Below the pieces are notes generated by a model, which was not told the DNA's origin, ran no database searches, and was given only the letters and a program-made list of their open reading frames with translations. Below are positions 2,491 to 63,027 of a DNA stretch of 64,000 nucleotides, in pieces. Position 1 is the first letter of the stretch. Each line of letters starts with the position of its first letter. A program made the position numbers and the translations under genes. The DNA comes from a virus, in the UHGV virus genome UHGV-1375844. The stretch is one strand, 5' to 3'.

Positions 2491-2506
2491 ACTTACTTAA
2501 TAAGTG
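2491..2506. promoter_or_regulatory. motif A palindrome copy (variant)
   Basis: ACTTACTTAATAAGTG between primase-side gene and 2003..2470. Confidence 0.4.
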
Positions 2507-2551
2507 GATTCTAAACAAGCCCCATCAGGGGGCTAAGTGTTTAAGTAAGGC

Positions 2552-3346
2552 TTACCAGGTCGCCCAGCCGGTCATCTTGCCTTGTGCGGCCTCGAATCTA
2601 AACGGCTCAAGTAGTTCATTGGCGTGGTGGACGGCATATGATTTGGCCTCCTGCTTAACCATTGGGAGATCATTAGCCAGACGGACAACCTGCCCCGCAA
2701 AGCTCGCGAGGACGCCATCGCAAGCCTGTCCTGCATCGACAATGATGCGCACCAGGTCAAGGTCGCTATGACACATATCGCAGATGGTGCCGTATTCAAC
2801 CTCACGAACACGCTCCACAGCCTTCTTGGTGTCAGCATTTACAACTAAATCCAGCAGACCAGGCGGGGTCTTCAGCTCAGAAGAACGTTCCATTACTTCA
2901 GGCAATTCGATGATGCTTAAGAATGCGGCGCAGGCTGTGTCCTCTTCCGTTTCCGCTCTGTTTTTGATCGCTCTTAGGGTGATGTCTACGACACTAAGAA
3001 GATCTTCACCATGCAGGCATTGGGCGTAATTTGTGAAGACGATACGGCCGTCGTACCAGGCACCGGTACGTATCTCCATCGCTCCATTCTCAGCCTTCTT
3101 CATGAAAGCCACCAACGCGGCACGCTTCGGTTTAATGCCCGGTAATTCAGGGGACTCTCCAAAGCGAACCCACACCCGCATGTAAGAAGAACCTTCAGCA
3201 AGCGATACGGTCTTTAGCACCTGTGCAATATGCTTCAACGCCGCATCGATGGCTTCACCAACAATTTTCTGGCGTTCGTCAGCGTCGATTTCCACGCCCG
3301 ATTTATCAATCATCTCTGTCACGGATTTTTGAATGTCTTCTTTCAT
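2552..3346 (-). CDS. hypothetical protein (264 aa)
   Basis: Long ORF in replication block; no recognisable motif. Confidence 0.55.
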   Translation of the reverse strand: MKEDIQKSVTEMIDKSGVEIDADERQKIVGEAIDAALKHIAQVLKTVSLAEGSSYMRVWVRFGESPELPGIKPKRAALVAFMKKAENGAMEIRTGAWYDGRIVFTNYAQCLHGEDLLSVVDITLRAIKNRAETEEDTACAAFLSIIELPEVMERSSELKTPPGLLDLVVNADTKKAVERVREVEYGTICDMCHSDLDLVRIIVDAGQACDGVLASFAGQVVRLANDLPMVKQEAKSYAVHHANELLEPFRFEAAQGKMTGWATW

Positions 3347-3387
3347 CGGTATTCCTCACTCAACAATGCGCTTATTCTTACAGAAAT

Positions 3388-3407
3388 ATAAGTAAGCATC
3401 TACTTAT
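3388..3407. promoter_or_regulatory. motif A palindrome copy
   Basis: ATAAGTAAGCATCTACTTAT in the primase / 2552..3346 intergenic gap. Confidence 0.45.
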
Positions 3408-3424
3408 CATAAAGGCTATAAAAC

Positions 3425-4540
3425 CTACACGAGAGCTTTGATGCCAAGCACCTTGCTTTGCAGTTCAAGCTGTCTTGTGTAGGGTTTCGCACGATAATAG
3501 GCTTTGAGGATTTGCTCTGGCGTCGCGTCGCCCGGGTCAAGTCCTTCCTCTCCTAAGCAGGCGACTTTAACGTTGATGCCCAGACTGGCGAGTCGTCTGG
3601 CCGCCGACATCGTGTTGCGGATCGCTTGCTTCTCGCTATCCCACATCATAATGACGTTTCGCAGACCACGGGCCTTCAGTGTCAGGAACGCGCCCAGCTG
3701 GTCTTCTGCATCTTCCGTTGTATTTCCGGATAAGTGCATCCCGAACGTACCTATTGGCTCGACGTACTCTCGCAACGTCTCTTCTTCGAATATGGCGCGC
3801 TTAACCCCCATGACATCAAACGCACCTTCACACACGACGACCGTCTGCTTTCCGACCGCGTTATGGCCGTTGTAGAGAAACTTTCCGGAGGCTGGCAGCT
3901 GCATGGGGAAAAGGTAGCGACGTTCTGCTGTGCCGGTGACATCACGCCCCTGGAATGTCTTCATGACACCATCCAGATCGTAAACCGGTATGAGAATGCG
4001 CATGTCAAACACCTGCCCCTTCACCTGGTCGGTGTAGGGATCGACATACGCGTGCTTGCCTTCCACGCAATAACGAAGGTCAAAGTATCTGGCCATTTCC
4101 GGCGTTATGAGACGCTTAACGAGATAATCAGGAAGTCGCCCATCGATAGGCAGTTCATAGTGGCGCGGAAGAGCAACTGGCCCCTCAAGCTCAACACCAC
4201 TGGATAACACCACTTCTTCTTTCTTCGGCGCCCACCCCTGCGAGATTAAGGCATTCTGAACGTATGCCTCGAAATCCCGGCGTGATTTGCCACTGTAGTG
4301 CTTGAGAAAAACCAGCTTGTTAAACTGAATCTCTTCGGGGTGATCGCCCGCAAAACATTTACCTACGCCATGAGAGAGGTTGAAATACACTTTCCAGTTT
4401 GAGCTGCCGCATACCGGACACTCTTTGATGTTAATTTCTCGTCCGCGCGTACTCACTCCGCCGCGACGATAGATAACGCCTTCAGTATCGAGCCATTGTT
4501 CAAAATCCAGCTCGGTCAGTAACTCTTTCAGGTCGCTCAC
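3425..4540 (-). CDS. DNA primase (zinc-ribbon + TOPRIM)
   Basis: CPVCGSSNW...GKCFAGDH zinc ribbon; TOPRIM-like VVVCEGAFDVMG and MMWDSEKQ. Confidence 0.75.
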   Translation of the reverse strand: MSDLKELLTELDFEQWLDTEGVIYRRGGVSTRGREINIKECPVCGSSNWKVYFNLSHGVGKCFAGDHPEEIQFNKLVFLKHYSGKSRRDFEAYVQNALISQGWAPKKEEVVLSSGVELEGPVALPRHYELPIDGRLPDYLVKRLITPEMARYFDLRYCVEGKHAYVDPYTDQVKGQVFDMRILIPVYDLDGVMKTFQGRDVTGTAERRYLFPMQLPASGKFLYNGHNAVGKQTVVVCEGAFDVMGVKRAIFEEETLREYVEPIGTFGMHLSGNTTEDAEDQLGAFLTLKARGLRNVIMMWDSEKQAIRNTMSAARRLASLGINVKVACLGEEGLDPGDATPEQILKAYYRAKPYTRQLELQSKVLGIKALV

Positions 4541-4690
4541 GTTTAAACCTACTTTTTTCAGGCAATATTTTGATTACTCTCGGTTTTTAGTTACCATAGA
4601 GGCTCATGTGTTTTTCTTTTGTGGTTTTGGCAAAAGAAAACTTAAATCTCTGATGGATTAAGGCGTGGAGAGACTTTCCACGCCTGTTTT

Positions 4691-6817: not shown

Positions 6818-6831
6818 GTGATCCGCTATGG

Positions 6832-6850
6832 TAGGTAGTTACTTACTTAT
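6832..6850. promoter_or_regulatory. motif A palindrome copy
   Basis: TAGGTAGTTACTTACTTAT immediately upstream of ATG at 6817. Confidence 0.45.
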
Positions 6851-6936
6851 CAAAGTGAGCGAATCATAACGACTGGAGACAGCTTTTGGAAGTGGCAACT
6901 GAAGGGAATGTGTCTGGGAAGCTCGTTGTGAAAAGA

Positions 6937-6990
6937 CCTGCTTCCGTATAAATAATAATAAGTAACTTAGTATTTATATACAGAAGCAGG
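6937..6990. repeat. long inverted repeat H1 (18-20 bp arms)
   Basis: CCTGCTTCCGTATAAATA ... TATTTATATACAGAAGCAGG; loop carries a motif-A-like palindrome; near-identical copy at 40995..41049. Confidence 0.7.
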
Positions 6991-7006
6991 TTATAAAATC
7001 CTTTAT

Positions 7007-8052: not shown

Positions 8053-8412
8053 TTAGCCTTTCTTCATCAGCTCGCGCTTGATCTCGTCTGTGCGCATCGT
8101 GACGTCAGCAGCGGTGATCGCCTCGTTCAGTTTCACAATGTCCTCGATTTCCTGCGGCGACTTCTCTGCCAGATGGTAAATGGCTGCACGAATCACGTCA
8201 GAACGGGTGAACTTCTCAAAGCGAGGGATGAATTTCATCATCTCCAGCAGATCGAAGTATTCGTCCTCCAGCGACATGGTACGGCTCTTTATTTTCTCTT
8301 TCCCACGAGTCGGGCGGCCCTGTGGTCTGACTGGCTGGCGCAACGGCGTGCTGTTTTTGGCCGGAGCATCCGGTTCTTTGCGCTTGGCAAGGTCTCCCAT
8401 CTTCATGGACAT
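8053..8412 (-). CDS. ParG-like ribbon-helix-helix partition protein (putative centromere-binding)
   Basis: Basic disordered N-terminus then RHH-like segment (KSRTMSL / EDEYFDLLEMM / RSDVIRAAIYHLAE); immediately downstream of ParA-like gene. Confidence 0.5.
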   Translation of the reverse strand: MSMKMGDLAKRKEPDAPAKNSTPLRQPVRPQGRPTRGKEKIKSRTMSLEDEYFDLLEMMKFIPRFEKFTRSDVIRAAIYHLAEKSPQEIEDIVKLNEAITAADVTMRTDEIKRELMKKG

Positions 8413-9077
8413 TACTCTTCCTCCAGACTCAAGATATAATCAACAAACTGTTCAAACTCGGCTTCTGCCTTCTTGTCGCGTTCGGCGCCAGTCATTTCAA
8501 AGATAGAGCGACCAGCCTCTTCTGCATCATCGTAAACGTTACGGTTGTACAAATTGACCGGTGCAGCTTCGATACCAAACGTCTCAACGATTTCTTTGGC
8601 GGCCAGAATACGCGACACCTGGGAAGGTAGTGACGGGCACTGGTTGATAACGGCACGTATTTTCACCTTCTCGTTCACATTGCGTACATTGTCGATAATC
8701 GGGTCGATGTCGCGCAGCGATTTCAGGTCACGACGTTTAGGGCGCAGCGGTATGACGATAACATCAGCCATCAGCATAGCTTGTCGCTGGATTTCGGAGT
8801 CGAAGCCCCCTGCGTCTACAACCACGTAATCGAAGCGCCCCTGAAGCGATTTGAGATGCTTAACGACGTCTTCCTGAACGTAAGCGAAAGGAATGAGATC
8901 GAGATCTTCATTCTGTCGACGGTCTTCGCACCAGCTGGTAGTGGTGCGCTGGATGTCGATGTCGGTAACTTGGATTTTCTTTTTCTTTTTGACTTTCAGG
9001 CAAACCGCTATTTGCTGGGCAACGGTCGATTTACCCGGGCCACCCTTCGTGCCGCCAACCACAATGATCCTAGTCAT
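8412..9077 (-). CDS. ParA/ParF-family partition ATPase
   Basis: Deviant Walker A GGTKGGPGKST, 221 aa. Confidence 0.8.
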   Translation of the reverse strand: MTRIIVVGGTKGGPGKSTVAQQIAVCLKVKKKKKIQVTDIDIQRTTTSWCEDRRQNEDLDLIPFAYVQEDVVKHLKSLQGRFDYVVVDAGGFDSEIQRQAMLMADVIVIPLRPKRRDLKSLRDIDPIIDNVRNVNEKVKIRAVINQCPSLPSQVSRILAAKEIVETFGIEAAPVNLYNRNVYDDAEEAGRSIFEMTGAERDKKAEAEFEQFVDYILSLEEE

Positions 9078-11737: not shown

Positions 11738-12073
11738 TTATTGCAGTCCATTTTTAACGCCGTAAGCGGCCAGCCCCAACAGCAGTACGGTAATCAGGAA
11801 CGACGTAATCTTTGAGACAATGCCGCCAAAAAACCCGCTGGAGATGGAGTCGAGCCGATTAAGAAGTTTGTCCAGATTTGAATGCTGGATGCTGTGTTGT
11901 GCCGGGGTCATATCGCCAAAGTAGGTCTTGAGCTGATCGTTAACTTCCTGACCAATCTCCTCGCGCAGTTCTTTGCCCAATTTGCCGACTACCTCGCGGG
12001 CAACAATCGCGGCAATGCGCTCTACCTGCTCTGGCGTTACGCCTGCCATCTCGTTCGACATTATTTCCTCCAT
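11738..12073 (-). CDS. putative holin / membrane protein
   Basis: 111 aa with C-terminal TM helix (ITSFLITVLLLGLAAYGV); first gene of presumed lysis cassette. Confidence 0.4.
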   Translation of the reverse strand: MEEIMSNEMAGVTPEQVERIAAIVAREVVGKLGKELREEIGQEVNDQLKTYFGDMTPAQHSIQHSNLDKLLNRLDSISSGFFGGIVSKITSFLITVLLLGLAAYGVKNGLQ

Positions 12074-12124
12074 GAAAAGTCAAATCGGGATGGCAGGGTT
12101 ATAACACATTAGCAAACAATTTTG

Positions 12125-12143
12125 TAGGTAAGCACTTACTTAT
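12125..12143. promoter_or_regulatory. motif A palindrome copy
   Basis: TAGGTAAGCACTTACTTAT between Gly-rich gene stop and holin-like gene. Confidence 0.45.
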
Positions 12144-13227: not shown

Positions 13228-13247
13228 ATAGGTAAGCACTTACCTAT
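13228..13247. promoter_or_regulatory. motif A palindrome copy
   Basis: ATAGGTAAGCACTTACCTAT just downstream of lipoprotein gene stop. Confidence 0.45.
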
Positions 13248-14967: not shown

Positions 14968-17900
14968 TATCTGTTCTCCTTGATTTCACGGATTTCGTCA
15001 CGCAGCTCTTTCACCGCTTCGACCAGCAGTCCAATGACGCCGTTATAGTTCAGACGCAGACGCTCTTCCCCGGATTGGTCATTTTTATCAACCGTTACCA
15101 GTTCTGGCTGTACCTTCTGAACATCCTGAGCGATCAGGCCACCAGACTGCTCGTATCGATCATGTACCTGAATCTCATACAGAACCCCTTCAATCTGCCC
15201 CAGCTTGTCGAGTGCGCTCTCGATTTTGCGGATATTCCGCTTACTTCTACGGTCAGAACGGATATATACGTCGTTGAAGCTACCATTACCGCCACATACC
15301 CAAGTGCCATCGTTTTGCAGATATGCCTGGGCATCCGTACCGTTGGCCGTCCGTGAGTTGTTGATCATGTAAAAACCAAACTGGCTGTTACCCAGACCGC
15401 CGACGAAAAACTTACGATCGGCATGATCTTGTCTCAACAACGCTTGGGCCGAGCTGGTTGACACGGCATTCCGTCCAAAAATAACGTTCTGATCACGCAT
15501 GTTAATCCACGAGCCAGAGCCGCTATTGATGGCGAAGCGACCTGCGTAGACCCACGCACTTGAAGTAATGTCTCCTGACACAGAAAGGGGCTTATTGCTT
15601 TGCAACGTCCCGTTGACGAATCGGAACACATGAGCGCTATTGGCGTAGACATCCAGTACGCCATCCCCATTTTGCTTAAACCCGGTATCGTTATCTCCCA
15701 GAACAATAGAGTTCCCACCTAATCCATTCGTTACGCCTAAACCGAGGCTGCCGGCAATAGTTGCGCCACCAGCGATATCAAGGCCGTTAGCCATCGACGC
15801 ACGACCAGAAGTGTTGTTAATGGTCAGCGGTCGAAGGCCGTTCCATCCACCAAACTTGTCGCCTGATGCCGTTAAAAGGAAATAGGTGCTGCTGCCATCG
15901 TTTCGGATGAAGAAGCCAAAGTTACCGTAAGCAGCTCGCAGAGCATTGGCGCTTAATGAGGTGATCTCATTTCTTGCACGAACACCATATCCAGTGTTGA
16001 TAATGAGTTCCTCTTGCGCGTCAGTATTCCCTGTCGCCCAACGGATAGTTCCACCCTGAACCGTCTCGTGCCAGATTGTGTCGCTACTTCCCCCGCGGTA
16101 TTTGCGGAGATATTTCTTACCCCCTGTCGTGCCTCCACATAAAGCGGTGGCCATGTACGTGCCCTGGGCGCCGCCATCCTGATTAATGGTTCCGGTAACT
16201 GCTCCACCGCCTGTAGGGAGTGCCCCAACCTCAGCGGCGCTCGGTTTGTTAGCCGTGGTGTAGATCTGCGCCCAACCAGACCAATTGGCGTCAGTGGTAT
16301 CACGACGAGAGCGGATGTAAGCTGGGGCATGGCCACCGCTGGTGCCACTCCAGCCGAGTAACAACTCGCCTTCGCCTGCAGCAGACCCTCCTTTAAAATG
16401 AAGAACGTTGCCGTAAGTTGTTGGATAGCCGTTGTTGTAGGCTTCATACATCTGGATACCCGGCATGGCCCCCTGCGTACTTCCGGCCAGCGCGGTAACG
16501 CGACCGCGAGATACCAGAGTAGGGATGCTGATATTCGCGGTACCATCAAAAGCGACATTGTTGATCGATCTTGCCGTCTGCAATTTGCTCGCTGAGACCG
16601 CATTAGCACCTGAAGCAAGAGCGCCAATATCGGCAGGCGTTGGCTTATTACGGGTGTTATATAAGCGACGCCAGCCTGGTCCATAGCCGTCACCATTATT
16701 TACGTAAATAAACTCGGCGTTAGTTACCCCACCATGACCTGTCGTCGTTGGTGTGGTAATGCGGATCGTGTAGTTACCTGAGTTTCCATTGCTGAAAACT
16801 TCAATAACTGAACCAGAGAGATCAATCCTGCCGCATCCAGTGTCGTCAATGTAGTTATTGCTGGCGTAAGACCATGAGCAACGCGCGATCCAACATTTAT
16901 ACCCAAAAGCACCTTGTTCATTAAGCCAGGTAACAAACTGAGCTGTGGTAAAGGCCGCACCACTGCCACTATTCAGCCAACCACTAACTGCTGCCGCAGC
17001 ATTGATGTTTGCCGGGCTAATGTTAATGTCAGAAGAACCGTCGAAGTTTACACCTGCGATTTTACGTGCGGTTTGTAGCTTAGTTGCAGTCGCTGCGTTG
17101 CCTGTCGTGCTTTGATTTCCCTGGGTGTTAACACCAGGCAAGTTGATATCGGCGGAACCGTCAAAATTCACCCCACCAATTTTTCGGGGCGTCCTGAGCT
17201 TGCTGGCCGTACCCGCATTCCCTGATGTTGACTGGTTCCCCTCGGCATTCACACCCGGAAGATTGATGTCCTGGCTGCCATCGAACAGCACCCCACCAAT
17301 ACGACGTCCCGTCTGGAGTACCGTCGCAGTACTCGCATTGCCCACCAGTGAGCCTGTAATAGCACCATTGATGTCTGAAAGTACTCGATGATATACCGTT
17401 CCCTCTACGGCGCCTTCAGGCAACGAGTCAACCGATTCGATCACTTCCAGCGATTCAACCGCGGCGCCGGAGAATTGCAGGTTCACAATTAACTTTTGAG
17501 CGCCCGCGCCCACGCGAAGGTAGATGTCGTAATTTTCTTCGTCGGTATTAACGGTGGCCACGCTATTTACAGCGGAGTCCTGCGTTAAATAGGCAACAGC
17601 ATTGAGACCTTTGGGATCGCCCCCCGCTGTGCGAAGAACAATGTCAGCCATCGCAGCCTGGCCTGGGCTATCGGTATCATAGCCAGCGCCACCGATCACT
17701 TCGATGTAGACAGTGCTGGTCGCTTGCGGCATACGCGCACGCGAGACTTTTACCCACTTGGGCGTATCAGAGGTCAAGTCCAGTTCGGCGGACGTACCTT
17801 TCCATTTCACGCTGGCGATACTGGACTGCGCATTCTGCGCATATTCGTATGCCTTGTCCTCAGACGCTTTCGCTTTCGTCTGGGATGCTTTGGCCTCAGC

Positions 17901-19203: not shown

Positions 19204-19223
19204 TTAAGTAAGTACCTACTTAT
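19204..19223. promoter_or_regulatory. motif A palindrome copy
   Basis: TTAAGTAAGTACCTACTTAT between J-like stop and fibre start. Confidence 0.45.
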
Positions 19224-25647: not shown

Positions 25648-25671
25648 CCTGTCAGCGCCTACAAATAATAG

Positions 25672-25690
25672 TAAATAAGCACTTACTTAT
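25672..25690. promoter_or_regulatory. motif A palindrome copy
   Basis: TAAATAAGCACTTACTTAT between M-like and L-like genes. Confidence 0.45.
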
Positions 25691-31030: not shown

Positions 31031-31335
31031 TCACCAGCCGCTTTTTCGTTCTCTTCATCAATCACTTCCATAGCGAAGGTGAAGATCTGCTGAAGCTGCG
31101 GAACAGTTAGTTTTTCCAGCACTGCATCAGGTACGGATGGGATGACCTTGCGCACAAGATCGGCATAGGCAGTAACCTGCTCTACCGGGGACATGTTCTG
31201 AAGGTCTTTCCCTTCCATTTGTTTGATGGAAACGAACAGGCCAACAGTCATTTCAACGATGGGGTATTCCTGACCGCCGAATTTGATGCTTTTCTTCGGA
31301 GGCAGAATGGAGTCGAGATCGAGTAATTTGGTCAT
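31018..31335 (-). CDS. tail assembly chaperone, lambda G-like
   Basis: 105 aa acidic protein between major tail and tape measure genes. Confidence 0.6.
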   Translation of the reverse strand: MTKLLDLDSILPPKKSIKFGGQEYPIVEMTVGLFVSIKQMEGKDLQNMSPVEQVTAYADLVRKVIPSVPDAVLEKLTVPQLQQIFTFAMEVIDEENEKAAGEGAK

Positions 31336-32191: not shown

Positions 32192-32211
32192 ATAAGTATA
32201 TACTTACTTAT
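32192..32211. promoter_or_regulatory. motif A palindrome copy
   Basis: ATAAGTATATACTTACTTAT immediately upstream of major tail gene. Confidence 0.45.
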
Positions 32212-35515: not shown

Positions 35516-35520
35516 AACAG

Positions 35521-35539
35521 TAGATAACTACTTACCTAC
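35521..35539. promoter_or_regulatory. motif A palindrome copy (variant)
   Basis: TAGATAACTACTTACCTAC adjacent to the capsid terminator. Confidence 0.4.
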
Positions 35540-37372: not shown

Positions 37373-38947
37373 TCACTCGGTCTCTTGAGTAGATGAGTCC
37401 CCATTCCCTCGGGGTTGATCTTGCCCGCTCTCTTGGGCTGCATCTCGATCATAAGTAAGTACTGACTTATTTTCAAGGGTGTTTAGATCATTTTTTAGAG
37501 GAAATTTCAAGAGGTCTTTATCAAATTCCTTTTTCATCGCTTCGGAAATGTTAGGGAAGACTTTCTCGATAAGCATTTCCATCTGGTGCCGACGAACAGA
37601 ATCTGGCGCCTGCAGCAATGCGAGTTTCTCAGCAACAGCAAATTCGTCAGTCAGCCCGCGAATATCGAAACTCTCCGGGTAAGCAATTAAAGAGTGGTCT
37701 TCGTCCAGTTCGACACCCATCCACTTCGCGGCCAGCATCATCATTTGGCGCTCGGCTCTTTCGAGACGTTCAGCCTTTGTCACCAGCAGACTGTTAACTC
37801 TCTGGAAGTCGTACATTTTGGCTGCGCCTGATGAGTTATCGATACCCTGCGCGTTATCCTGCTTGGTTCGCTCTCCTGCAACACCAACGGAGTGGTAGAT
37901 CTCATTAATCACGGTCTTAATCGTGGTAATGATCATCTGCGCTTGTTTTGGGTCAGGCGAAAGGTAAAACGGCTGGTTCCCGCCCTCGGAATCGTAGGTG
38001 AAAACACGCTTCGTCCCCATCTCCAGCACCTTGTCGTGATTTTCATCGCCCGGCAGTAGAGACTGAACAGGGATAGCAAGCTGGCTAAATGTCTGATCCT
38101 GAATGATGGCGTCCAGGTTCGAGAGATAGTTAGCGACGGCCCGATCGAGATAGGCAATATCATCAATGAGTGACGGGCTGAAATAAGGTGATTCACTTTC
38201 CCCGATGCAATCTACCGGGAATACCGGTACCGCGCCCAACTTGTGCTCACCGTAGTCCTCCAGCACGACTTTTGCCTGCCTGCGACCTGCGCCACCGGAA
38301 CTCTTTTTCACCTCTTCACGGAAGAGATACCATTCATTTTGTGTCCATAGACGATAACGCTGGTATTCCTGACCAGTTGAGGTGAAAGGGTCCGTATCGT
38401 CACGCGCAATTTCTACGATCAGCGCCCACAGCATATTGCCATCTTCGTCCCAGGCCACATCAAGCAGCTGCTGCGGCGAAATCCAGTAGGCATAGGCTCG
38501 CGCCCCCTTCTGTTTCTCGTCAGCAACGGACTCAACGTCACCGTTCATTGTGCTATCGACCACAACCCAGATGCGGCCGTAAATAGACGACTGAAGATCG
38601 ATTGCCGCCATGAACGCATCAATGGAAGCATTCTGCCGTGTGGCTCGTTTCCAGAAATTGCGGATCTGCTCGGGCGCCTCTTCGATATTGCGATGAATAT
38701 CCTCTTTGAAGAGATATTTGTTGATCAGGTTTACCACTTCGCGAGTGTGGTTAAAGCGATACGCTCGCTCAAGGCGCTCCTTGAACTCCTGATCACCCTC
38801 TTTGAAGTAACGAAAGATATTTTCGCTGAACCAGGCTCGCCCGCCAGCGTAAGTGCTGGCGAGAAAATCCCAATGTTCTTTTTTCTTCTCATATTCGGGG
38901 TGGCGCCGGGCCACCAGATCTTTGATTTGCTTATCAGTCAATTCCAT
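37373..38947 (-). CDS. portal protein
   Basis: 524 aa directly downstream of terminase large subunit. Confidence 0.7.
   Translation of the reverse strand: MELTDKQIKDLVARRHPEYEKKKEHWDFLASTYAGGRAWFSENIFRYFKEGDQEFKERLERAYRFNHTREVVNLINKYLFKEDIHRNIEEAPEQIRNFWKRATRQNASIDAFMAAIDLQSSIYGRIWVVVDSTMNGDVESVADEKQKGARAYAYWISPQQLLDVAWDEDGNMLWALIVEIARDDTDPFTSTGQEYQRYRLWTQNEWYLFREEVKKSSGGAGRRQAKVVLEDYGEHKLGAVPVFPVDCIGESESPYFSPSLIDDIAYLDRAVANYLSNLDAIIQDQTFSQLAIPVQSLLPGDENHDKVLEMGTKRVFTYDSEGGNQPFYLSPDPKQAQMIITTIKTVINEIYHSVGVAGERTKQDNAQGIDNSSGAAKMYDFQRVNSLLVTKAERLERAERQMMMLAAKWMGVELDEDHSLIAYPESFDIRGLTDEFAVAEKLALLQAPDSVRRHQMEMLIEKVFPNISEAMKKEFDKDLLKFPLKNDLNTLENKSVLTYDRDAAQESGQDQPRGNGDSSTQETE
37451..37470. promoter_or_regulatory. 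motif A palindrome copy inside portal 3' coding region
   Basis: ATAAGTAAGTACTGACTTAT about 100 nt upstream of scaffold start. Confidence 0.4.
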
Positions 38948-38963: not shown

Positions 38964-38983
38964 ATAGGTAAGCACTTACTTAT
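38964..38983. promoter_or_regulatory. motif A palindrome copy
   Basis: ATAGGTAAGCACTTACTTAT spans terminase large subunit stop; AGGAGA RBS and portal ATG follow. Confidence 0.5.
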
Positions 38984-40965: not shown

Positions 40966-40994
40966 TGGTTTATCAAAACTTGAGAGTTGCAGAA

Positions 40995-41049
40995 CCTGCT
41001 TCCGTATATAATTAATAAGTGACTTAATATTTATTTATACGGAAGCAGG
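40995..41049. repeat. long inverted repeat H2 (about 20 bp arms)
   Basis: CCTGCTTCCGTATATAA ... TTATACGGAAGCAGG; arms nearly identical to H1 at 6937..6990. Confidence 0.7.
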
Positions 41050-41074
41050 CTCCACATCTGACTCCCAGACCTGC

Positions 41075-42250: not shown

Positions 42251-42501
42251 CTGCGCTCGATATTGGCATTAATGAAATCCAGGCGAAGAGATTCCATCGC
42301 TCCCACCATGACATACGGGCGCCCGCCGTTATGCCAGCAATCAAGAACACTGCCGTCATTGTTGATCATCAGCAGCGCCAGGCTCTGGCTTTTGCCTTCT
42401 CTGGCGTACTGAAGTGCTTCTTCCAGCAGGCGGATGACTTCAACGTTATTGTTGTCAGCCTCTTTCGATGGCTTCAGCTCTACGATCTTCAAATCAGGCA
42501 T
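42247..42501 (-). CDS. hypothetical protein (84 aa)
   Basis: Coupled by overlaps to both neighbours. Confidence 0.4.
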   Translation of the reverse strand: MPDLKIVELKPSKEADNNNVEVIRLLEEALQYAREGKSQSLALLMINNDGSVLDCWHNGGRPYVMVGAMESLRLDFINANIERR

Positions 42502-43132
42502 ATTCCACCTTCACGCGTTCTTTGTAGTGCTTGGTGATCTGCATATCCGGCCGCAGGGCGTTCTTCAGATCTTCGTGTGTCGTCGCCACCATTACCGTCG
42601 CGCCAACCTTACGAGCGGCACGCTGGAGGTTCGACGCAACAACCTGAGCGGTTACACGGTCGAGTACGGCACCAAATTCGTCGGCCGCCCACACTTTCGC
42701 GCCGGACTCGATTAGCTTGGCGATTTTGAGACGGTATTTCTGGCCGTCAGACATTTCGGATGGCTTGCGCACAAAGAGATAGGCGTCATTCAATCCGGCC
42801 ATAGACAACAGCCCCAGCGCTTCGCTGGTGGTTTTGCCCAGCTGGTCGATGACGTTAACCTCATTGTCGAAAGCAAAATCATCGATTGAGGCCACAGAAA
42901 GACCTTCATCCTTCATCTGGCGTTGCAGCTCGCGCAGCACAACGGATTTGCCTGAACCGGATTGTCCGGTGATGTACACAACATCACCCTGCTTCACTTC
43001 CAGCTCCAGATTGTCGTAAAGCGTCCACTCTTTTTCGTCCAGACCAAGACCGAACGATTCGGCAATTTCCAGCGTTCGCGTGGTTTTGTTCACGCGGGTC
43101 TGGAACGACACGTTGATGGTGTACTTACTCAT
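42494..43132 (-). CDS. ABC-type ATPase, nucleotide-binding domain only
   Basis: Walker A GQSGSGKS, signature-like MSDGQKYRL, Walker B VWAADEFG, H-loop ATTHED; 212 aa, no membrane domain. Confidence 0.65.
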   Translation of the reverse strand: MSKYTINVSFQTRVNKTTRTLEIAESFGLGLDEKEWTLYDNLELEVKQGDVVYITGQSGSGKSVVLRELQRQMKDEGLSVASIDDFAFDNEVNVIDQLGKTTSEALGLLSMAGLNDAYLFVRKPSEMSDGQKYRLKIAKLIESGAKVWAADEFGAVLDRVTAQVVASNLQRAARKVGATVMVATTHEDLKNALRPDMQITKHYKERVKVEYA

Positions 43133-43830
43133 GCAGCCAGCTCCCCGGAGGACACTTTCTCCGCATACGCCACGAAAGCGTTCACCCCGCGCTCTCCCGT
43201 GATTTCTTCCATGTGGGCGAGCAAATCCCCAACCACAATGGCAGAGCCAGCAGGAAGCGTTTTAAAGCCCAATACGTCGATGACACGGACTTCTTCAGCG
43301 GCCACTTCGCGACTGATCTCGGTGTGCTCTTCTTTCTGGCGTTCCGTCTCTTCGCCCAGATCGAGCACCAGAGAGCCGGTTTCCATCTCTTCGGTCATGC
43401 TGCCGACAAGCACATTCAGTTCACGCTCTTCAAAACCGAAGACCTCGACGTCGCCCAGCACCAGGGATTCCAGTTCCTGCTGCAATTTGATGGCGTCGTA
43501 ATCGATACTGGCAAGGCGGTTGTCTTCCAGACGCTTCGCCTTCACCTCTTCTTCATTCAGATCGTCGCGAACAATGACCGGCACACGCTCCAGACCAGCC
43601 AGAAGCGCCGCCTCGCGACGACCATGACCAGTAATGATGACGCCGTTCTTGTCGATCGTGATCGGCTGGTCAAAACCGCGCTTTTTGATGGCGGCAGCCA
43701 GATCGCGGATCTGCTGTTCATCATGTTTTTTGGCGTTCATCTCATACGGGATGAGTTCAGCCGGGTTTCGATAGACGATTTCAAAGTTCTTGGTCATTAC
43801 ATACGCTCCTTGTAGTAGTCGACCAGCCAC
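43129..43830 (-). CDS. ParB-like nuclease-domain protein
   Basis: ParB/Srx-like N-terminal region (ITGHGRREAALLAGLERVPVIV), acidic C-terminus. Confidence 0.55.
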   Translation of the reverse strand: MAGRLLQGAYVMTKNFEIVYRNPAELIPYEMNAKKHDEQQIRDLAAAIKKRGFDQPITIDKNGVIITGHGRREAALLAGLERVPVIVRDDLNEEEVKAKRLEDNRLASIDYDAIKLQQELESLVLGDVEVFGFEERELNVLVGSMTEEMETGSLVLDLGEETERQKEEHTEISREVAAEEVRVIDVLGFKTLPAGSAIVVGDLLAHMEEITGERGVNAFVAYAEKVSSGELAA

Positions 43831-44495
43831 ACCAGGGCTTCCCCGGCGTTCTCCATTTCGTTACCGGTGTTGATCCCCTGCTCTTTGATGATGGTTTTGA
43901 TGGTGTCGGCGACGCGATCTGACGCATCAAACGTCACTTTGAAGCGCATCGTCTGGTGTTCTGCGCCAACACGCTCCGTTTTCTCGCGGCGATCGTCGTC
44001 AGCTGGCTCATCATCGCCGCGGGAAAGCGCTTCCAGCGCTTCGAGATCAATGGCAGAGGCTTTGGCAAGGGTGGCCGCCATTTCATCGTCATAGGGGGCA
44101 ATATCGGAAAGCCGGTAGTCGATTTCAGACTGGATTTCTTCGATCAGTCGCTGCAAAGCGATCTGATCGTCTTCGCCGTAACGTTCGTTATCGACAAGTG
44201 ACATCTGCTTGGCCACCAGGTCGTTGATTTTGCCAACCGAGATGACAGGAACAGTCGAAATTCCCTGCTCTATCGCAGCCCGCCAGCGATGTTCGCCGCC
44301 GAGGATCTGGAAAGTGCCACCGTCCAGCTCACGGGCCAAAATTGGCTTAAAAAAGCCCAGCTTCTCGATAGAACCTTTCAGTTTTTCGAAGTTTTGCGCC
44401 CCCACCGAGTTGGTGTTCCAGGGATTCGGACACAGTTTCGCAACTTCAACCTGCAAAATCGTAATTTTCACATCCATTTTCTTGATACAATCCAT
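43797..44495 (-). CDS. ParB-like nuclease-domain protein
   Basis: Classic ParB box GGEHRWRAA; first gene of operon. Confidence 0.65.
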   Translation of the reverse strand: MDCIKKMDVKITILQVEVAKLCPNPWNTNSVGAQNFEKLKGSIEKLGFFKPILARELDGGTFQILGGEHRWRAAIEQGISTVPVISVGKINDLVAKQMSLVDNERYGEDDQIALQRLIEEIQSEIDYRLSDIAPYDDEMAATLAKASAIDLEALEALSRGDDEPADDDRREKTERVGAEHQTMRFKVTFDASDRVADTIKTIIKEQGINTGNEMENAGEALVWLVDYYKERM

Positions 44496-44497
44496 TG

Positions 44498-44514
44498 TAT
44501 AAGTACTTACTTAT
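44498..44514. promoter_or_regulatory. motif A palindrome copy in divergent control region
   Basis: TATAAGTACTTACTTAT between minus-strand operon start (44495) and plus-strand helicase (44560). Confidence 0.45.
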
Positions 44515-44559
44515 TATAATAGCCAATTAACACACAAAAGGCACGAAGGAAAGAGGTTT

Positions 44560-46889: not shown

Positions 46890-47417
46890 ATGACGAACAT
46901 AACTGACATCACCTACGGTATACCTGCAGAAGTCTGGCCGCGGGATTATTCTAACGTCGAGAAGGCACTCATGTTCTGGCGTAAATCCCTCATTCCTGTA
47001 AGGGTCACGATGGAGGATGGTCAGGTGTTCTGCATGTATGTGCAGGGTCTCATGTCATCCCGCAATAAGGTTGATCTTTGCTCTGCCCCGTTCGACAAAG
47101 AAAATCGTATAAGGCTCCCACTTGAGCGGATCAGCACGATTGAGTCGGGTGTGACAGAAAGTATTGGACACGACTTCAAGGGGCGAATCACGATTAACCC
47201 CGAATATGTTGATAATCGGCCATCTCGCCGGGACTTCTTCAAAATCTGTCGGCAGGCTCATGCGTCTCAGAAGTCTATAAGGGTGTACATGGCGGATGGC
47301 CGTGAAATTGAAGGTGTGTCATTAGGCGTTGACGCTTGCCAGGTCACGATCGGCATTGGTGAAGGTCGCAAGATGGTGGTCTTGTTCGATTGGGTCGAAA
47401 GGATTATACCGTTTTAA
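46890..47417 (+). CDS. hypothetical protein (175 aa)
   Basis: ORF directly after lipoprotein gene. Confidence 0.5.
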   Translation: MTNITDITYGIPAEVWPRDYSNVEKALMFWRKSLIPVRVTMEDGQVFCMYVQGLMSSRNKVDLCSAPFDKENRIRLPLERISTIESGVTESIGHDFKGRITINPEYVDNRPSRRDFFKICRQAHASQKSIRVYMADGREIEGVSLGVDACQVTIGIGEGRKMVVLFDWVERIIPF

Positions 47418-51047: not shown

Positions 51048-51063
51048 ATAAGTAACTACTTAC
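51048..51063. promoter_or_regulatory. motif A palindrome copy (variant)
   Basis: ATAAGTAACTACTTAC upstream of 50616..51008. Confidence 0.4.
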
Positions 51064-51138
51064 AATACAGAGTAGCCAAAAAAGCCCCGAAGGATGGACG
51101 GGGCTGTCGTAAATTCGACTAAACGCTTTTGCACATGG

Positions 51139-52426: not shown

Positions 52427-52604
52427 ACGTCCTCGGCAATTTCGCCACCAAAACCCTTAACCCTTTACACTAGCTCTGGCTTCCCGACATGAGCGTGCGA
52501 AGCTAGTCTGGTCTCAACACTCAATTGCGGGACTCACAAGTTCCCGCAATATTCAGGTTAACGAGAAGCAAGACACACTCCCGCAGCGCTCCCTCGCTCT
52601 TTAC

Positions 52605-52750
52605 CGGGATGCATCCGTTTCCTGACCTGAAGCCAGCCTTTTCCCGGTTCGCATGACGGGATTCTCCCCGTTTCCCTGAAAAACCCAGCCGTTTCCCTGC
52701 GGCGATGCTCCCGTTTTCCAGTAGGGATGCAGCCTTTTCTCTGGATGGCC
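52605..52750. repeat. iteron-like direct repeats (GCCGTTTCCC family), about 6 copies
   Basis: CATCCGTTTCC, CAGCCTTTTCCC, CCCCGTTTCCC, CAGCCGTTTCCC, CCCGTTTTCC, CAGCCTTTTCTC at about 22-28 bp spacing. Confidence 0.6.
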
Positions 52751-52979
52751 CGCAGGTTGACCGTAGGGGTGGGGAGGGACGTTACGGGAGATAAAATCAT
52801 GGCTTGAATAAATACGGGAAAAGTAGCGATCCCCCTCTTCCCCTTCCCACTTATACCTCCAGTTAAATCTCTGCGTTCCTCTCTCCTTTAATCGAATCTG
52901 TCTTCCCTCCGATAAGGCTCAATACGATGACTACCTCTGTACGTGAAATGGGTGGTTCGTACTCTCTGCCGGCATATGT

Positions 52980-53470
52980 CTTTTTGCGCTTCTTGAGGCT
53001 GTTCTTCTATGCGTTTTCTTCTGGGTTGTTTTCGTCTCTTTGGGTGTTCTTCTTCTCTGGGTATTGAGTAATGGCAGGTGTGCTTTCCTCTTCGTTTACT
53101 TGCTGAGAAGGAAGTGTGGGGAATGGCAGTAGGGCGCTTTAGTTGTTCTCTGCATATCAAGTAATAGCGTTCCCTGCTTTTCAGGACTTTGCGCTCTCTT
53201 CAGGGGTAATGGTGGGTAAGTAAGATTGCAACGGCTCCTGTTCTGGTCTGGGTTTGCCCGGGGTTGCATTCTGAGCGCTGTTCTCTGTGTTTTGGGTAAT
53301 GGCATGTAGAGGATTGCGTGCGCGAGCTGCGTCTCGGTTGCCTGGTGGCATTAGGTGGGTGGTCGGTAGCCTGGGGTCAAGAGGTGGGTCTATTCCATAG
53401 CCTGGTGGTAAGAGGTGGGTAGTTTCCGGGGGTTGTGGGCAATGGCGCCTCTGGGTTTCCCGCGGGTGGG
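52980..53470. repeat. degenerate tandem direct repeats in ORF-free region
   Basis: Recurring TTCTCTGGGT...GGTAATGGC units (period roughly 75-80 bp) and 3 copies of TAGCCTGG.GGT.AAGAGGTGGGT; a fourth copy of the latter lies at about 49871. Confidence 0.55.
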
Positions 53471-53510
53471 ATTAATTTGTTTTCTTGCTGTAGAAAACAA
53501 CTTGTTTAAA
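53471..53510. promoter_or_regulatory. motif B copies in both orientations
   Basis: ATTAATTTGTTTTCTTGC and GAAAACAACTTGTTTAAA. Confidence 0.4.
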
Positions 53511-53706
53511 TGGGCAATTTAACGCAATCAGAGCGCTTTTGAGCGTGTCTGTTTTTGGGTGGTGTGTTGAGTCGTTAGAGATGCTTTCGTCGCGAGGTGA
53601 TTGATTCTGGTGGGCAGGATAGCGGGTATAAGAGATGGCATGTGAAAACGTCAACTTTTTAGACTAAATCGGGAGAATGCATTGACATTTCTTTGATGTG
53701 TTATTT

Positions 53707-53731
53707 ATTTGTTTTCTCATATGCGTAATTA
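53707..53731. promoter_or_regulatory. motif B-like copy
   Basis: ATTTGTTTTCTCATATGCGTAATTA (compare 9112..9130). Confidence 0.35.
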
Positions 53732-54075
53732 ACTGAAAGCCCTTGTCACGCCTGGTCTGGTGTAGGTTGGGAGAGTGGAGAAAGTGGCGATCAACGGACT
53801 CTTATAGAAATCCTCATTTTGTGACCGCCAATGTCAACGATTTGACTAAATCAGATGGTCGAGTTCATCGTTGATTTGCTCTCTCAGGGAGGAATCGTTT
53901 ACACCCCACGCGTCAATCCTTTGCCTCAACTCTGGACTGAATTGCATATAGATGCTGTGGATGATTTGTGGGGTAGGGGTTAAACCTCTCATCGCAATGC
54001 ACTGGTACAGGTATGACTTTTCACTGAACACTGTTAAATGCCCTCATTTGATTGAAAAGTGCATTTTAACCTTAG

Positions 54076-58157: not shown

Positions 58158-58177
58158 ATAAGTAAGTATTTACCTAT
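58158..58177. promoter_or_regulatory. motif A palindrome copy
   Basis: ATAAGTAAGTATTTACCTAT abutting the methyltransferase stop codon. Confidence 0.45.
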
Positions 58178-61529: not shown

Positions 61530-61691
61530 GTTGTTGACTGATTTCTTCTTTAGCAATGGACTGGCGAAATAGAACGCCAGCCCAACCAACACGCCATCAG
61601 CCGCAACTGACATCAACTTGCCGGTGAAATCCACCAGAACGGTCAATACCAGCAGCGCGATAACTGCCGCAAATCTGAAGTTCTCTAACAT
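61518..61691 (-). CDS. small membrane protein (57 aa)
   Basis: Hand-translated MLENFRFAAVIALLVLTVLVDFTGKLMSVAADGVLVGLAFYFASPLLKKK...; ATG overlaps upstream stop (TAATG). Confidence 0.35.
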   Translation of the reverse strand: MLENFRFAAVIALLVLTVLVDFTGKLMSVAADGVLVGLAFYFASPLLKKKSVNNKGQ

Positions 61692-62116: not shown

Positions 62117-62140
62117 GTGTTTTCCTTATTAGTTATTTGG

Positions 62141-62158
62141 CTTAACAAATTGTTTAAG
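62141..62158 (-). promoter_or_regulatory. motif B core copy
   Basis: CTTAACAAATTGTTTAAG. Confidence 0.45.
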
Positions 62159-62181
62159 TAGTGATGAAACCTAAATAAGCG

Positions 62182-62370
62182 TTAAAAAAATCCGAGTACG
62201 CTTCCGAGCGGTACGATGAAAATGCCCACCACTCGCGCCAGAGTCATGCCGGCGTTGAAATGGAGATCTCCGCTCGCAATGAGCTTCACCAGATTCATTA
62301 CCCACCCACCTAACAGAACGATGCACAGGCCGATCCAAATAGATGTGATTTTTTGGAAACTTAGCGTCAT
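62182..62370 (-). CDS. small membrane protein (62 aa)
   Basis: Two hydrophobic helices. Confidence 0.4.
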   Translation of the reverse strand: MTLSFQKITSIWIGLCIVLLGGWVMNLVKLIASGDLHFNAGMTLARVVGIFIVPLGSVLGFF

Positions 62371-62621
62371 GCCACTACCTCAATCACAGCAGGAGGAAGA
62401 TCCGGTATCGCAGGACGCGCCGGAATAGTGTCCAGAGACATCCCATCCAGAGAAACAGGTGCTCTTTCGGGCTGGGGTGTCGTCTGTGACGGTGTGATGG
62501 GAGAAATGGTTGATTCCGGCATCAGTATGCTCTGACCGGTGGGAATTGCTGCGGCTGCCAGAGAAGCCAATATCAGACCGTAGGCCATTGGTTTCAGTCG
62601 CGTTCTTTGAAAGTTTTCCAT
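62367..62621 (-). CDS. putative secreted Pro-rich protein (84 aa)
   Basis: ORF 62367..62678 trimmed to MENFQ start; signal-peptide-like MAYGLILASLAAAAIP. Confidence 0.3.
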   Translation of the reverse strand: MENFQRTRLKPMAYGLILASLAAAAIPTGQSILMPESTISPITPSQTTPQPERAPVSLDGMSLDTIPARPAIPDLPPAVIEVVA

Positions 62622-62889
62622 CCGAACTCTCCATGTGCTTCTGGGATTGACGCAGCACGCGAGAAACCGTGGATTCACTTTTCTTTTTAACGGCTACAGT
62701 CGCCCCCAGATGGGCAATGGCGTCAGCCTGGGCATTAGCTCGATGCTCCAGTTCAGCCACTCGCTCTTCAAGCTCCACGAGACGTGCAAAAATTCCGCCG
62801 CTTAACAAATTGGCGAAAGCCAGACGTAATGAACGAGGTCGTTTTTTGAAAGAGGTGAGGGGCGTATGACGTGCCATTGAGGATTCCAT
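62380..62889 (-). CDS. hypothetical protein; only N-terminal coiled-coil part looks coding
   Basis: First ~90 codons coiled-coil-like; remainder low-complexity and overlaps 62367..62621 in another frame. Confidence 0.3.
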   Translation of the reverse strand: MESSMARHTPLTSFKKRPRSLRLAFANLLSGGIFARLVELEERVAELEHRANAQADAIAHLGATVAVKKKSESTVSRVLRQSQKHMESSDGKLSKNATETNGLRSDIGFSGSRSNSHRSEHTDAGINHFSHHTVTDDTPARKSTCFSGWDVSGHYSGASCDTGSSSCCD

Positions 62890-63007
62890 TCATTGTCAGA
62901 AAGAGTTGCGGCTGGCATGGCCAGCCGCCGTTTGGCGTTCCATCCTGGAACAGTGCCTACCGGCACTTCGTCATCCTGACGAATGGTAAGATAACTGATT
63001 TAATATG

Positions 63008-63027
63008 ATAGGTAAATACTTACTTAT
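63008..63027. promoter_or_regulatory. motif A palindrome copy
   Basis: ATAGGTAAATACTTACTTAT spanning the RNase H stop codon. Confidence 0.45.

Follow-up and report, generated by a model that had tools for sequence, protein, structure and literature searches.

The window, by which we mean the whole stretch of 64,000 nucleotides analyzed here, is 88% coding and 99.6% identical to the Salmonella plasmid pSA20094620.2, a phage-plasmid of the SSU5/pHCM2 type. A position-weight scan of the window revealed 13 strong and about 4 weak copies of a palindrome with the consensus ATAAGTAAGTACTTACTTAT, where 0 would be expected (Table 1). The enrichment was confirmed by a pattern search allowing up to three mismatches, which gave 10 matches in the window and 0 in 100 dinucleotide-preserving shuffles. 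The first-pass annotation had listed 15 coordinates for a perfect 20-bp palindrome; each of them matches a copy within 1-10 nt, although those at 2491 and 51048 are weak or half sites. The 20-mer itself has to be regarded as a consensus, because no window copy is perfect and the best one, at 37451, still carries one mismatch.

Table 1. Palindrome copies and nearby features in the window. The first 13 rows are the strong copies; the four weaker ones start at 2481, 51048, 6958 (in H1) and 41015 (in H2).
Feature	Coordinates	Strand	Context
Palindrome copy, gene-strand reading ATAAGTAGATGCTTACTTAT	3388..3407		Gap between 371-aa and 264-aa genes
Palindrome copy	6831..6850		13 nt upstream of the ATG of the 241-aa gene preceding the DnaB-like helicase; ribosome site between motif and ATG
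Palindrome copy	12124..12143		Upstream of lysis cassette (holin homolog 11738-12073)
Palindrome copy ATAGGTAAGTGCTTACCTAT	13228..13247		Immediately past lipoprotein gene
Palindrome copy	19204..19223		Between tail protein J homolog and tail fibre gene; followed by GC-rich hairpin
Palindrome copy	25671..25690		Between tail genes M and L
Palindrome copy	32192..32211		Upstream of Ig-domain (major tail) gene; junction common to all relatives including Acinetobacter
Palindrome copy, weaker	35520..35539		8 nt past major capsid gene stop, then terminator-like hairpin with T run; arrangement common to all relatives
Palindrome copy, best (1 mismatch)	37451..37470		3' end of portal gene; 99 nt before DUF6651 (scaffold-like) gene; spacer of TTGAAA-N17-TATGAT
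Palindrome copy	38964..38983		Terminase-large/portal junction; terminase stop inside; AGGAGA 2 nt after, portal ATG 16 nt after
Palindrome copy, one half degenerate	44495..44514		Divergent gap between ParB-like gene and DEAD-box helicase operon
Palindrome copy	58158..58177		Abuts DUF4942 methyltransferase gene stop; 38 nt before next gene
Palindrome copy	63008..63027		RNase H stop codon inside
Weak copy	2481..2500		Gene-strand upstream half TTAAGTAAGT alone retained
Weak copy	51048..51067		Preceded by terminator-like hairpin; TTGTAA-N17-TAATAT readable across copy
H1 inverted repeat ACCTGCTTCCGTATA/TATACAGAAGCAGGT	6936..6991		AT-rich spacer with degenerate palindrome copy 6958-6977
H2, same inverted-repeat element as H1	40985..41059		Between 88-aa gene and small-terminase gene; degenerate copy 41015-41034
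Orphan ParB-like gene	43797..44495	-	GEHRWRAA motif, Spo0J-like N-terminal and HTH region; rival binder candidate
Full-length FljA-family (PF03614) regulator	46890..47417	+	Considered as binder and rejected

The location of the copies at gene junctions, noticed earlier, was borne out by the scan, since the centre of 16 of the 17 window copies is non-coding (binomial p = 4e-14), the sole coding-centred copy being that in the 3' end of the portal gene. The weak copies described within the H1 and H2 inverted repeats were also found. In the whole plasmid there are about 29 copies, which occupy some 25-30 gene gaps, and none lies in the accessory or maintenance regions. The motif stands ahead of early-type genes (nrdA, thyA, sbcCD and the dnaB operon) as well as of late genes for portal, capsid, tail and lysis. 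The next annotated start lies 11-130 nt away (251 nt in one case) rather than the 15-60 nt first given, and at least five copies have the start codon just 11-17 nt past the motif with the ribosome site in between, an arrangement also seen in Acinetobacter. Among the three stop codons said to fall inside the palindrome, those of the terminase large subunit (38980-38982) and RNase H (63020-63022) do so, whereas that of the methyltransferase overlaps it by 1 nt only. Some copies are directly preceded by terminator-like hairpins, and at two junctions a terminator lies 3' of the motif.

Copies were found at matching gene junctions in SSU5, Cyrano, two Klebsiella plasmids and an Acinetobacter relative, the conservation thus spanning two bacterial orders from Salmonella to Acinetobacter, and the motif persists where the flanking sequence diverges. 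There are about 24 copies (22-24) in SSU5, at least 22 in pJN2-26, 23 in Cyrano, about 24 in a distant Klebsiella plasmid whose proteins are mostly about 40-75% identical, and 24 copies of the variant ATTAGTAAGCGCTTACTAAT in Acinetobacter pAF-673 (0.2 expected). Two regions of Cyrano, of 20 kb and 14 kb, in which most of its accessory and lysogeny genes are located, are free of copies, as is the 44-64 kb region of the Acinetobacter relative. The Cyrano partition operon is expressed in the lysogen; H1 with a motif copy comes directly after it, and the replication genes come next. The lytic Pseudomonas relative nickie, whose gene order is that of the SSU5-type element, has no dispersed palindrome in 100 kb and no XRE homolog, and its gene gaps contain -10-type promoters in place of the motif. 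A scan covering 185,579 species genomes yielded 63 hits, a number close to our own chance estimate of about 35, and these were single copies in unrelated phyla except for Acinetobacter contigs and one two-copy contig of a gammaproteobacterial MAG (L126). Such near-chance hits, together with the orthologous positions across genera, argue against a host extragenic palindrome of the REP/BIME type. We found no earlier description of the motif in the literature that could be searched.

The two halves of the palindrome vary independently, and deviations on both sides occur at the rate expected under independence (20 observed versus 17.3 expected for the pair 4-17, and 6 versus 10 for the pair 9-12). 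No compensatory changes or covariation between the halves were seen among the copies compared, and the flanks of the motif are symmetric (aWR/YWt). These data bear on the possibility that the motif acts in RNA as a hairpin of polycistronic transcripts for processing or message stability, as already raised in the first-pass annotation, or for translation of the next gene. The ability of the palindrome to fold, its closeness to ribosome sites and the stop codons of upstream genes inside it would suit such a role. However, A.C mismatches occur on the sense strand as often as G.U, the predicted folds are weak (-0.2 to -6.6 kcal/mol) and inconsistent among copies, three of six tested copies fold no better than shuffles (four of six by z-score), and what is conserved across genera is the sequence rather than the pairing. 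In addition, a search of Rfam gave no match to the motif, and no T run of the kind a terminator would have directly follows the palindrome. An RNA hairpin is therefore very improbable. Because the halves are independent, compensatory changes are missing and the RNA hairpins are weak, the palindrome is, as judged from its sequence, a double-stranded DNA site rather than an RNA element, with a dimeric protein as its putative binder. The proposal that it is the target of a nuclease or methyltransferase is unsupported, because such enzymes do not need a site of 20-26 bp confined to gene gaps.

As a class, the copies have no conserved -35, in agreement with the earlier statement that the motif is not an ordinary sigma-70 promoter, but some copies are overlapped by a near-consensus promoter. 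At 37451 and at record position 4640, outside the window, the palindrome fills the exact 17-bp spacer of TTGAAA-N17-TAT(C/G)AT, so that promoters and motif are physically interleaved. The absence of a conserved -35 would also fit a model in which the palindrome is the activator-binding part of a -35-less phage promoter, like the late promoters of P1, with a phage activator on the palindrome and RNA polymerase using a TAT(C/T)AT formed by the last three motif bases and the next three. In P1, which has 11 Lpa-type late promoters (PMC10695390), the activator Lpa recognizes a 9-bp inverted repeat located around -22, with the -10 further downstream. Here, TATYAT at motif positions 18-23 scores at least 4/6 in 21 of 26 copies, and the motif centre AAGT/ACTT fits the P1 late-promoter box AAGTnACTT (AAGTTACTT in LPhot, ATGTGACTT in LPpac). 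At the copies directly preceded by terminator-like hairpins, the promoter must overlap the copy. The upstream flank is AT-rich. Of the two halves, the one upstream in gene direction is the better conserved, which together with a T at -11 conserved in one lineage hints at a directional, promoter-like role. The retention of all copies in SSU5 without XRE, and the conserved 88-aa gene just upstream of the small terminase, placed as P1 lpa is relative to pacA, point the same way.

Nevertheless, the mirror side offers a -10-like hexamer of the same quality (scores of 3.96 and 3.93 of 6 for the two sides), so that the hexamer may reflect the symmetric flank only, and a tblastn search with P1 Lpa found no homolog in the Salmonella plasmid, SSU5 or the distant Klebsiella plasmid (no hit below E = 0.18). 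Replication and nucleotide-metabolism genes also lie behind the motif, which is not what one temporal class would show, and at the five or more copies with 11-17 nt to the start codon a transcript starting about 10 nt past the motif would lose its ribosome site. The terminators after the motif at two junctions, and the core genes that nickie maintains without the motif, argue against this model as well, and we consider an activator of the Lpa type unlikely.

A different binder could be provided by the two orphan ParB-family proteins encoded beside the packaging genes, in which case the palindromes would be parS-like loading or binding sites and the proteins would serve, perhaps together with the neighbouring ABC-type ATPases, as a global regulator or DNA organizer. 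The protein encoded at 43797-44495 has a ParB N-terminal domain with GEHRWRAA and aligns to Spo0J over residues 13-161, a stretch that presumably takes in the HTH region. Its gene is not paired with the ParA gene of the element, located elsewhere, a motif copy abuts the gene start in both Enterobacterial and Acinetobacter members, and both ParB-like genes are retained wherever the motif is present. Precedents are offered by KorB on plasmid RK2, Noc in Bacillus and VirB in Shigella, and the palindromic sites of KorB and Noc are typically dispersed at 10-70 copies. However, nickie has both genes (34-39% identity) and the ATPases in the same order and lacks the dispersed palindrome, the site is 20-26 bp rather than 13-16 bp long, and the model would leave unexplained both the motif core at the XRE promoter and the lack of copies in accessory regions. 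Therefore, ParB-type sites appear improbable. Framed more broadly, the motif might, rather than being a repressor operator, be the recognition element of an unrecognized transcription system common to the whole SSU5 supergroup that switches about 30 operons, either Lpa-like with a small activator, e.g. the 88-aa protein, or parS-like for the pair of ParB-like CTPases and the ATPases; this broader alternative is somewhat unlikely.

The best candidate for the binder would be a 126-aa XRE/Cro-CI-type protein whose gene neighbours that of the integrase and lies outside the window (NZ_CP030187 17107-17487), as we infer from circumstantial links between this protein and the motif. The XRE gene is present in 1003 plasmids with the same host distribution, Acinetobacter included, as homologs of the SSU5-type capsid gene (954 plasmid records), and all listed hits on SSU5-sized plasmids place it at the integrase gene or beside it. 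Despite 33% overall identity, the helix-turn-helix residues Q26, G34, N37, N39, S42, I44 and G47 are invariant from Salmonella to Acinetobacter. The XRE promoter, TTTACA-16-TAATAT, carries the 12-bp motif core CAGTAAGCACTTACCAG at about +1, and likewise in Cyrano, where the ortholog CYRAN_45 is annotated as a putative repressor and is expressed in the lysogen (PMC9928086). Klebsiella and Acinetobacter relatives have only half sites upstream of the XRE gene.

The independent halves, the symmetric flanks, the positional conservation in distant relatives and the core at the promoter of the repressor candidate favour the earlier option of an operator for a dimeric regulator. Our preferred reading, to which we give slightly less than an even chance, is that the lysogeny repressor of the phage-plasmid uses the palindromes as dispersed operators or roadblocks; we infer both the repressing action of the bound protein and its identity as XRE. 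A single regulator encoded by the element would bind as one dimer or as two. While the element persists as a plasmid (prophage), this repressor would occupy the 25-30 or so sites heading the lytic operons for replication, nucleotide metabolism, packaging, head, tail and lysis. Where a site overlaps a promoter and fills its spacer and -10, it would exclude RNA polymerase, and where there is no room for a promoter it would act as a roadblock to read-through from plasmid-maintenance or accessory genes, as the 'stoperators' of L5 do. DNA-damage induction, probably through an antirepressor, would clear all sites together. Because the motif heads both early and late genes, one master switch fits better than a temporal promoter class.

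In agreement with what would be expected for the operators of a temperate lifestyle, the sites are kept in SSU5, which is without the XRE gene and the integrase, and are absent from the lytic nickie. That the 22-24 sites of SSU5 are fully intact without XRE counts at the same time against the repressor model, and these sites could be needed in lytic growth. Other points against it are that in the Salmonella plasmid and Cyrano the XRE promoter has, after its -10, the 12-bp core GTAAGCACTTAC without the outer ATA/TAT, that the motif centre is similar to the P1 Lpa box, and that 10 bp is a long half site for one helix-turn-helix.

Elements of the SSU5/pHCM2/pMT1 type count among the phage-plasmids most often met in Klebsiella, E. 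coli, Enterobacter, Salmonella, Yersinia pestis and, in the form of the AB-like group, Acinetobacter. They carry antibiotic-resistance genes and are inducible (PMC9600943), SSU5-like elements responding to mitomycin C or ciprofloxacin (PMC9600943; PMC9928086). How about 100 kb of lytic genes stay silent in them has no description in the searchable literature. A 20-bp site at every major operon head would offer a direct experimental handle on the lysogeny switch and a sequence signature by which their operon boundaries could be annotated. The repressor model also predicts that cells with the XRE protein would be immune to SSU5, a lytic phage employed in biocontrol.

The closest parallels come from phages and plasmids with dispersed binding sites. 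L5 has one operator and about 24 intergenic stoperators, and its lytic deletion derivative D29 lost the repressor and kept the sites (PMC5712189), as SSU5 does here. Like the gp71 sites of this Cluster A phage, the palindrome is a single site repeated about 24-30 times, mostly in short gaps of early and late operons (PMC5712189, PMC9283540). The L5 sites block transcription in the prophage, whereas such blocking is only proposed here; they are 13 bp, asymmetric, strictly oriented and bound by a monomer, unlike the 20-26-bp palindrome of a Gram-negative phage-plasmid, which implies a dimer. Streptomyces phage phiC31 also has a palindromic operator (CIR) repeated in intergenic regions, but it is 17 bp long, lies beside early promoters only, and is unrelated in host, sequence and repressor family. 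Ingham et al. (1994) reportedly described the palindromic phiC31 c repressor operator as tied to autoregulation of the repressor and as highly conserved in intergenic copies throughout the genome. P1 is likewise a plasmid prophage, in which the master repressor C1 governs many scattered operons from dispersed operators overlapping sigma-70 promoters (Olpa, OpmgT and Oc1a-e in the P1 annotation), but the C1 operators are 17-bp and asymmetric, and no C1 homolog was found in the element. The P1 late promoters share an AAGT/ACTT inverted repeat that replaces the -35 at multiple phage-plasmid promoters; their box is 9 bp, serves late genes only and has the -10 at a set distance, in contrast to the 20-bp motif, which serves early and late genes, has no Lpa homolog and in several copies leaves no room for a transcript start. 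The RK2 KorB OB and Noc sites are similarly palindromic ParB-family sites dispersed over a replicon for global silencing or organization, but they are shorter, and the ParB-like genes persist here in a relative without the motif.

The first 14 kb of the window are 99.6% identical to the Salmonella enterica plasmid pSA20094620.2 (NZ_CP030187.1; circular, 106,569 bp, IncFIB; hereafter the record, which has its own coordinates), and the Salmonella phage SSU5 matches the window at ~82-85% identity. Therefore, the window is part of a phage-plasmid of the SSU5/pHCM2 type. Almost every gene is on the minus strand; genes for DNA ligase, primase and helicase, a partition operon, and lysis, tail, head and packaging functions are followed by a region of small genes. 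One stretch of the window (see table) holds small ORFs only. Rfam and tRNA scans of the whole window were empty.

A dispersed, perfect 20-bp palindrome at gene junctions had been described in the first-pass annotation. Allowing up to 3 mismatches, ATAAGTAAGTACTTACTTAT gave 10 matches in the window and 0 in 100 shuffles, so that the motif is real and far above the shuffled expectation, although the word "perfect" has to be dropped, with 0 copies equal to the exact consensus. A weight-matrix scan detected 13 strong and ~4 weak copies in the window and ~29 across the whole plasmid. Their reported preference for gene gaps holds, as 16 of the 17 window copies are centred in non-coding DNA where 88% of the sequence is coding (p = 4e-14). 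The motif logo is aWR-ATAaGTAAGT-AcTTAC(c/t)TAt-YWt, and its aWR and YWt flanks show that the symmetry extends three bases past the 20-mer. The genes located 3' of the motif include those for replication and nucleotide metabolism and also structural and lysis genes.

All members examined share the positions of the motif, which stands at terminase/portal, within the 3' end of the portal gene, downstream of the capsid gene, and ahead of the major tail gene, tail gene L, the tail fibre, the lysis cassette, the dnaB operon, nrdA, thyA and sbcD. SSU5 carries 24 copies, the Klebsiella plasmid pJN2-26 at least 22, the E. coli element Cyrano 23, and the distant Klebsiella plasmid NZ_CP101792.1 ~24, the motif of the latter being unchanged while its proteins are mostly 40-75% identical. 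In Acinetobacter baumannii pAF-673, whose capsid protein is only 58% identical, 24 copies of the variant ATTAGTAAGCGCTTACTAAT were found (0.2 expected) at the same junctions and within diverged flanks. The half that lies upstream in the gene direction is the better conserved one, the bias being strong in the distant members from Klebsiella and Acinetobacter. The palindrome occurs across two bacterial orders, within a group of phage-plasmids that is very common and of clinical relevance. When viral contigs were scanned, nearly all of those with the motif measured 37-120 kb, a size range in which SSU5-type elements or parts of them would fall. Among 185,579 species genomes, we observed single matches in unrelated phyla, close in number to a rough chance estimate of ~35, plus Acinetobacter contigs, and no sign of a host regulon. 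A 3.7-kb contig of the metagenome-assembled Gammaproteobacteria genome COS1_bin_8 has two exact matches to the degenerate palindrome 837 bp apart and may represent a further relative of the family. The searchable literature contained neither the motif sequence nor any account of SSU5 or pHCM2 promoters or palindromes.

An RNA hairpin had been one of the roles initially proposed for the palindrome, and pairing was analyzed by a covariation test on a set of 90 distinct copies (five genomes). Would-be pairs deviated on both sides as often as expected of independent halves (20 observed and 17.3 expected for pair 4-17, 6 and 10 for pair 9-12), and A.C mismatches were about as frequent as G.U on the sense strand. 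The predicted sense-strand hairpins ranged from -0.2 to -6.6 kcal/mol, several being no better than shuffles, and the palindrome had no match in Rfam. Without compensatory changes, the hairpin option loses its ground, and an RNA role is highly improbable. Because the sequence is kept and the pairing is not, the palindrome is, as judged from its copies, a double-stranded DNA site made up of two half sites, and this implies a dimeric protein.

A conserved -35 box was not found near the motif. The last three bases of the motif and the three that follow read TAT(C/T)AT, a fair -10 box, but the mirror side scores the same, and this hexamer may therefore be merely the symmetric flank. Sigma-70 models were rejected in both arrangements tried: with the -10 at 18-23 and the -35 at -5 to 0, the gene direction did not exceed the mirrored one (p = 0.25), and with the -10 at -3 to +2, there was a weak asymmetry only and the -35 stayed at background (2.6 versus 2.44). 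A few copies fit exactly into the 17-bp spacer of a near-consensus promoter (see table). At the terminase/portal junction, the gene before dnaB and the methyltransferase gene, the start codon lies 11-17 nt past the motif, a spacing that Acinetobacter keeps, and a transcript starting downstream of the motif would lack the ribosome site located within this gap. A terminator-like hairpin stands 3' of the motif after the capsid gene and before nrdA in all lineages with that junction aligned. With some copies overlapping promoters of varied strength and others standing alone, these mixed contexts look like the operators of a master repressor rather than a single promoter class. The main rival, that the motif is the site of an activator like Lpa of phage P1 in promoters without a -35, is a less probable but serious possibility; it would account for the resemblance of AAGT/ACTT to the P1 late-promoter box, the directional conservation favouring the upstream half and the intact sites of SSU5, whereas tblastn gave no P1 Lpa homolog.

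In the lytic Pseudomonas phage nickie (NC_042091), the genes follow the order of SSU5 all along (helicase, ParB, ParB-like, ABC ATPases, terminase, portal, capsid, tail, lysis, PhoH, DnaB, primase, ligase, CobT/S, DnaE and onwards). Nickie encodes neither an integrase nor an XRE homolog, and the dispersed palindrome is missing from the 100 kb examined. The absence of the motif from this collinear phage indicates that it tracks the temperate plasmid lifestyle and not the core lytic machinery. Accessory and lysogeny-expressed regions of Cyrano and the Acinetobacter plasmid likewise lack the motif. The gene gaps of nickie carry -10 sequences of the TATACT, TATGAT or TACAAT type without a canonical -35; hairpins with -10-like loops were discarded as a systematic feature, being just 2 of 144 hairpins. 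Over the 100 kb examined, nickie-type lytic Pseudomonas phages run collinear with SSU5. A ParB-like homolog also occurs in phages of 105-122 kb of Rhizobium, Stenotrophomonas and Xanthomonas, which may be similar. Upstream of the packaging genes lies a conserved cluster of two orphan ParB-family genes (one with GEHRWRAA), an ABC-type ATPase, an 84-aa gene and a 299-aa ATPase, whose order is retained even in nickie and in the Acinetobacter plasmids. These ParB-family genes are not paired with the ParA of the element, and their conservation wherever the motif occurs would suit ParB/KorB-like sites; yet both proteins are also kept in nickie, which lacks the motif, and this explanation is unlikely.

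Among the candidate binders, the XRE protein, a Cro/CI-type helix-turn-helix (HTH) protein encoded outside the window, fits best, because of its distribution (it is present in 1003 plasmids, with the host spectrum of the SSU5-type capsid gene, Acinetobacter included), its HTH residues, invariant across genera at an overall identity down to 33%, its absence in nickie, its Cyrano ortholog, annotated as the putative repressor and expressed in the lysogen (PMC9928086), and a motif core at its own promoter. This promoter, TTTACA-16-TAATAT, is followed at ~+1 by CAGTAAGCACTTACCAG, a 12-bp core of the motif; the same arrangement is found in Cyrano, and half sites in other lineages. In SSU5, a ~7-kb deletion removes the XRE gene, the integrase and neighbours, and all motif sites are kept. 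Pfam, PHROG, NCBIfam and PDB sequence searches with XRE, an 88-aa and a 71-aa protein gave nothing informative beyond a generic HTH, and a large protein search with the 88-aa protein matched only SSU5-type "hypothetical proteins". A FljA-family regulator, the first lead, was rejected since its identity in the distant Klebsiella plasmid with the unchanged motif is only 37% and the searches detected no counterpart in the motif-bearing Acinetobacter plasmids. P1 C1 had no homolog by tblastn, and the sigma-70-region-2-like gene of the Acinetobacter plasmid is without homolog in Enterobacterial members. The sigma-like protein of pAF-673 matches region 2 weakly (E = 0.0026).

A second repeat element consists of the arms ACCTGCTTCCGTATA / TATAC(A/G)GAAGCAGGT around an AT-rich spacer of 26-27 nt which, as previously noted for the H1 and H2 inverted repeats of the window, holds a degenerate palindrome copy. 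The three copies found are located behind the partition operon, immediately upstream of the small terminase gene and near the adenine methyltransferase gene, and a pac site, an origin, a centromere or a strong terminator are possibilities for its role. FljA is the Salmonella repressor of phase-1 flagellin. The FljA-like gene is the last conserved gene of the sole plus-strand operon (DEAD-box helicase, 92 aa, lipoprotein, FljA-like) and occurs in 834 Enterobacterial plasmids, mostly SSU5-sized; it could be informative on where fljA came from, or hint that the element interferes with flagella.

Location of the features discussed in the text
Feature	Location	Strand	Description
Second repeat element	window 6936-6991 (H1); 40985-41059 (H2); record ~89560-89620 (outside window)		inverted arms
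Second repeat element, Cyrano	~31160-31215; ~78080-78140		
ParA of the element	window 8412-9077		
Cluster upstream of packaging genes	window 41351-44495	-	conserved
FljA homolog	window 46890-47417	+	full-length; PF03614, E = 2.7e-89
Small-ORF stretch	window 52430-54070		~1.6 kb; no gene annotated in the record
TTGAAA-N17-TATGAT			inside portal gene, upstream of scaffold and capsid genes
TTGAAA-N17-TATCAT	record position 4640 (outside window)		directly after strong terminator
XRE promoter and motif core	record 17000-17110 (outside window)		
XRE/Cro-CI-type protein	record 17107-17487 (outside window)		126 aa; WP_114050411.1; next to integrase
Annotated sigma-70 family factor	pAF-673 43891-44556		221 aa; between MoxR/CobS-like ATPase and dnaE

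Taken together, we tentatively favour the reading, drawn from comparative sequence evidence, that the palindrome may constitute a genome-wide set of operators or roadblocks for the lysogeny repressor of SSU5-type phage-plasmids, with XRE as the probable binder; such a repressor would block initiation where its sites overlap promoters, strong or weak, and would also occupy sites that stand by themselves. Systems of this kind are already known, namely the L5 stoperators, the P1 C1 operators and the phiC31 inverted repeats, and this instance, the 20-26 bp palindrome of SSU5-type elements, appears to be undescribed. Mycobacteriophage D29 has lost the L5-type repressor and kept the stoperators (PMC5712189), and SSU5 resembles it in having lost the XRE gene and yet retaining the sites.
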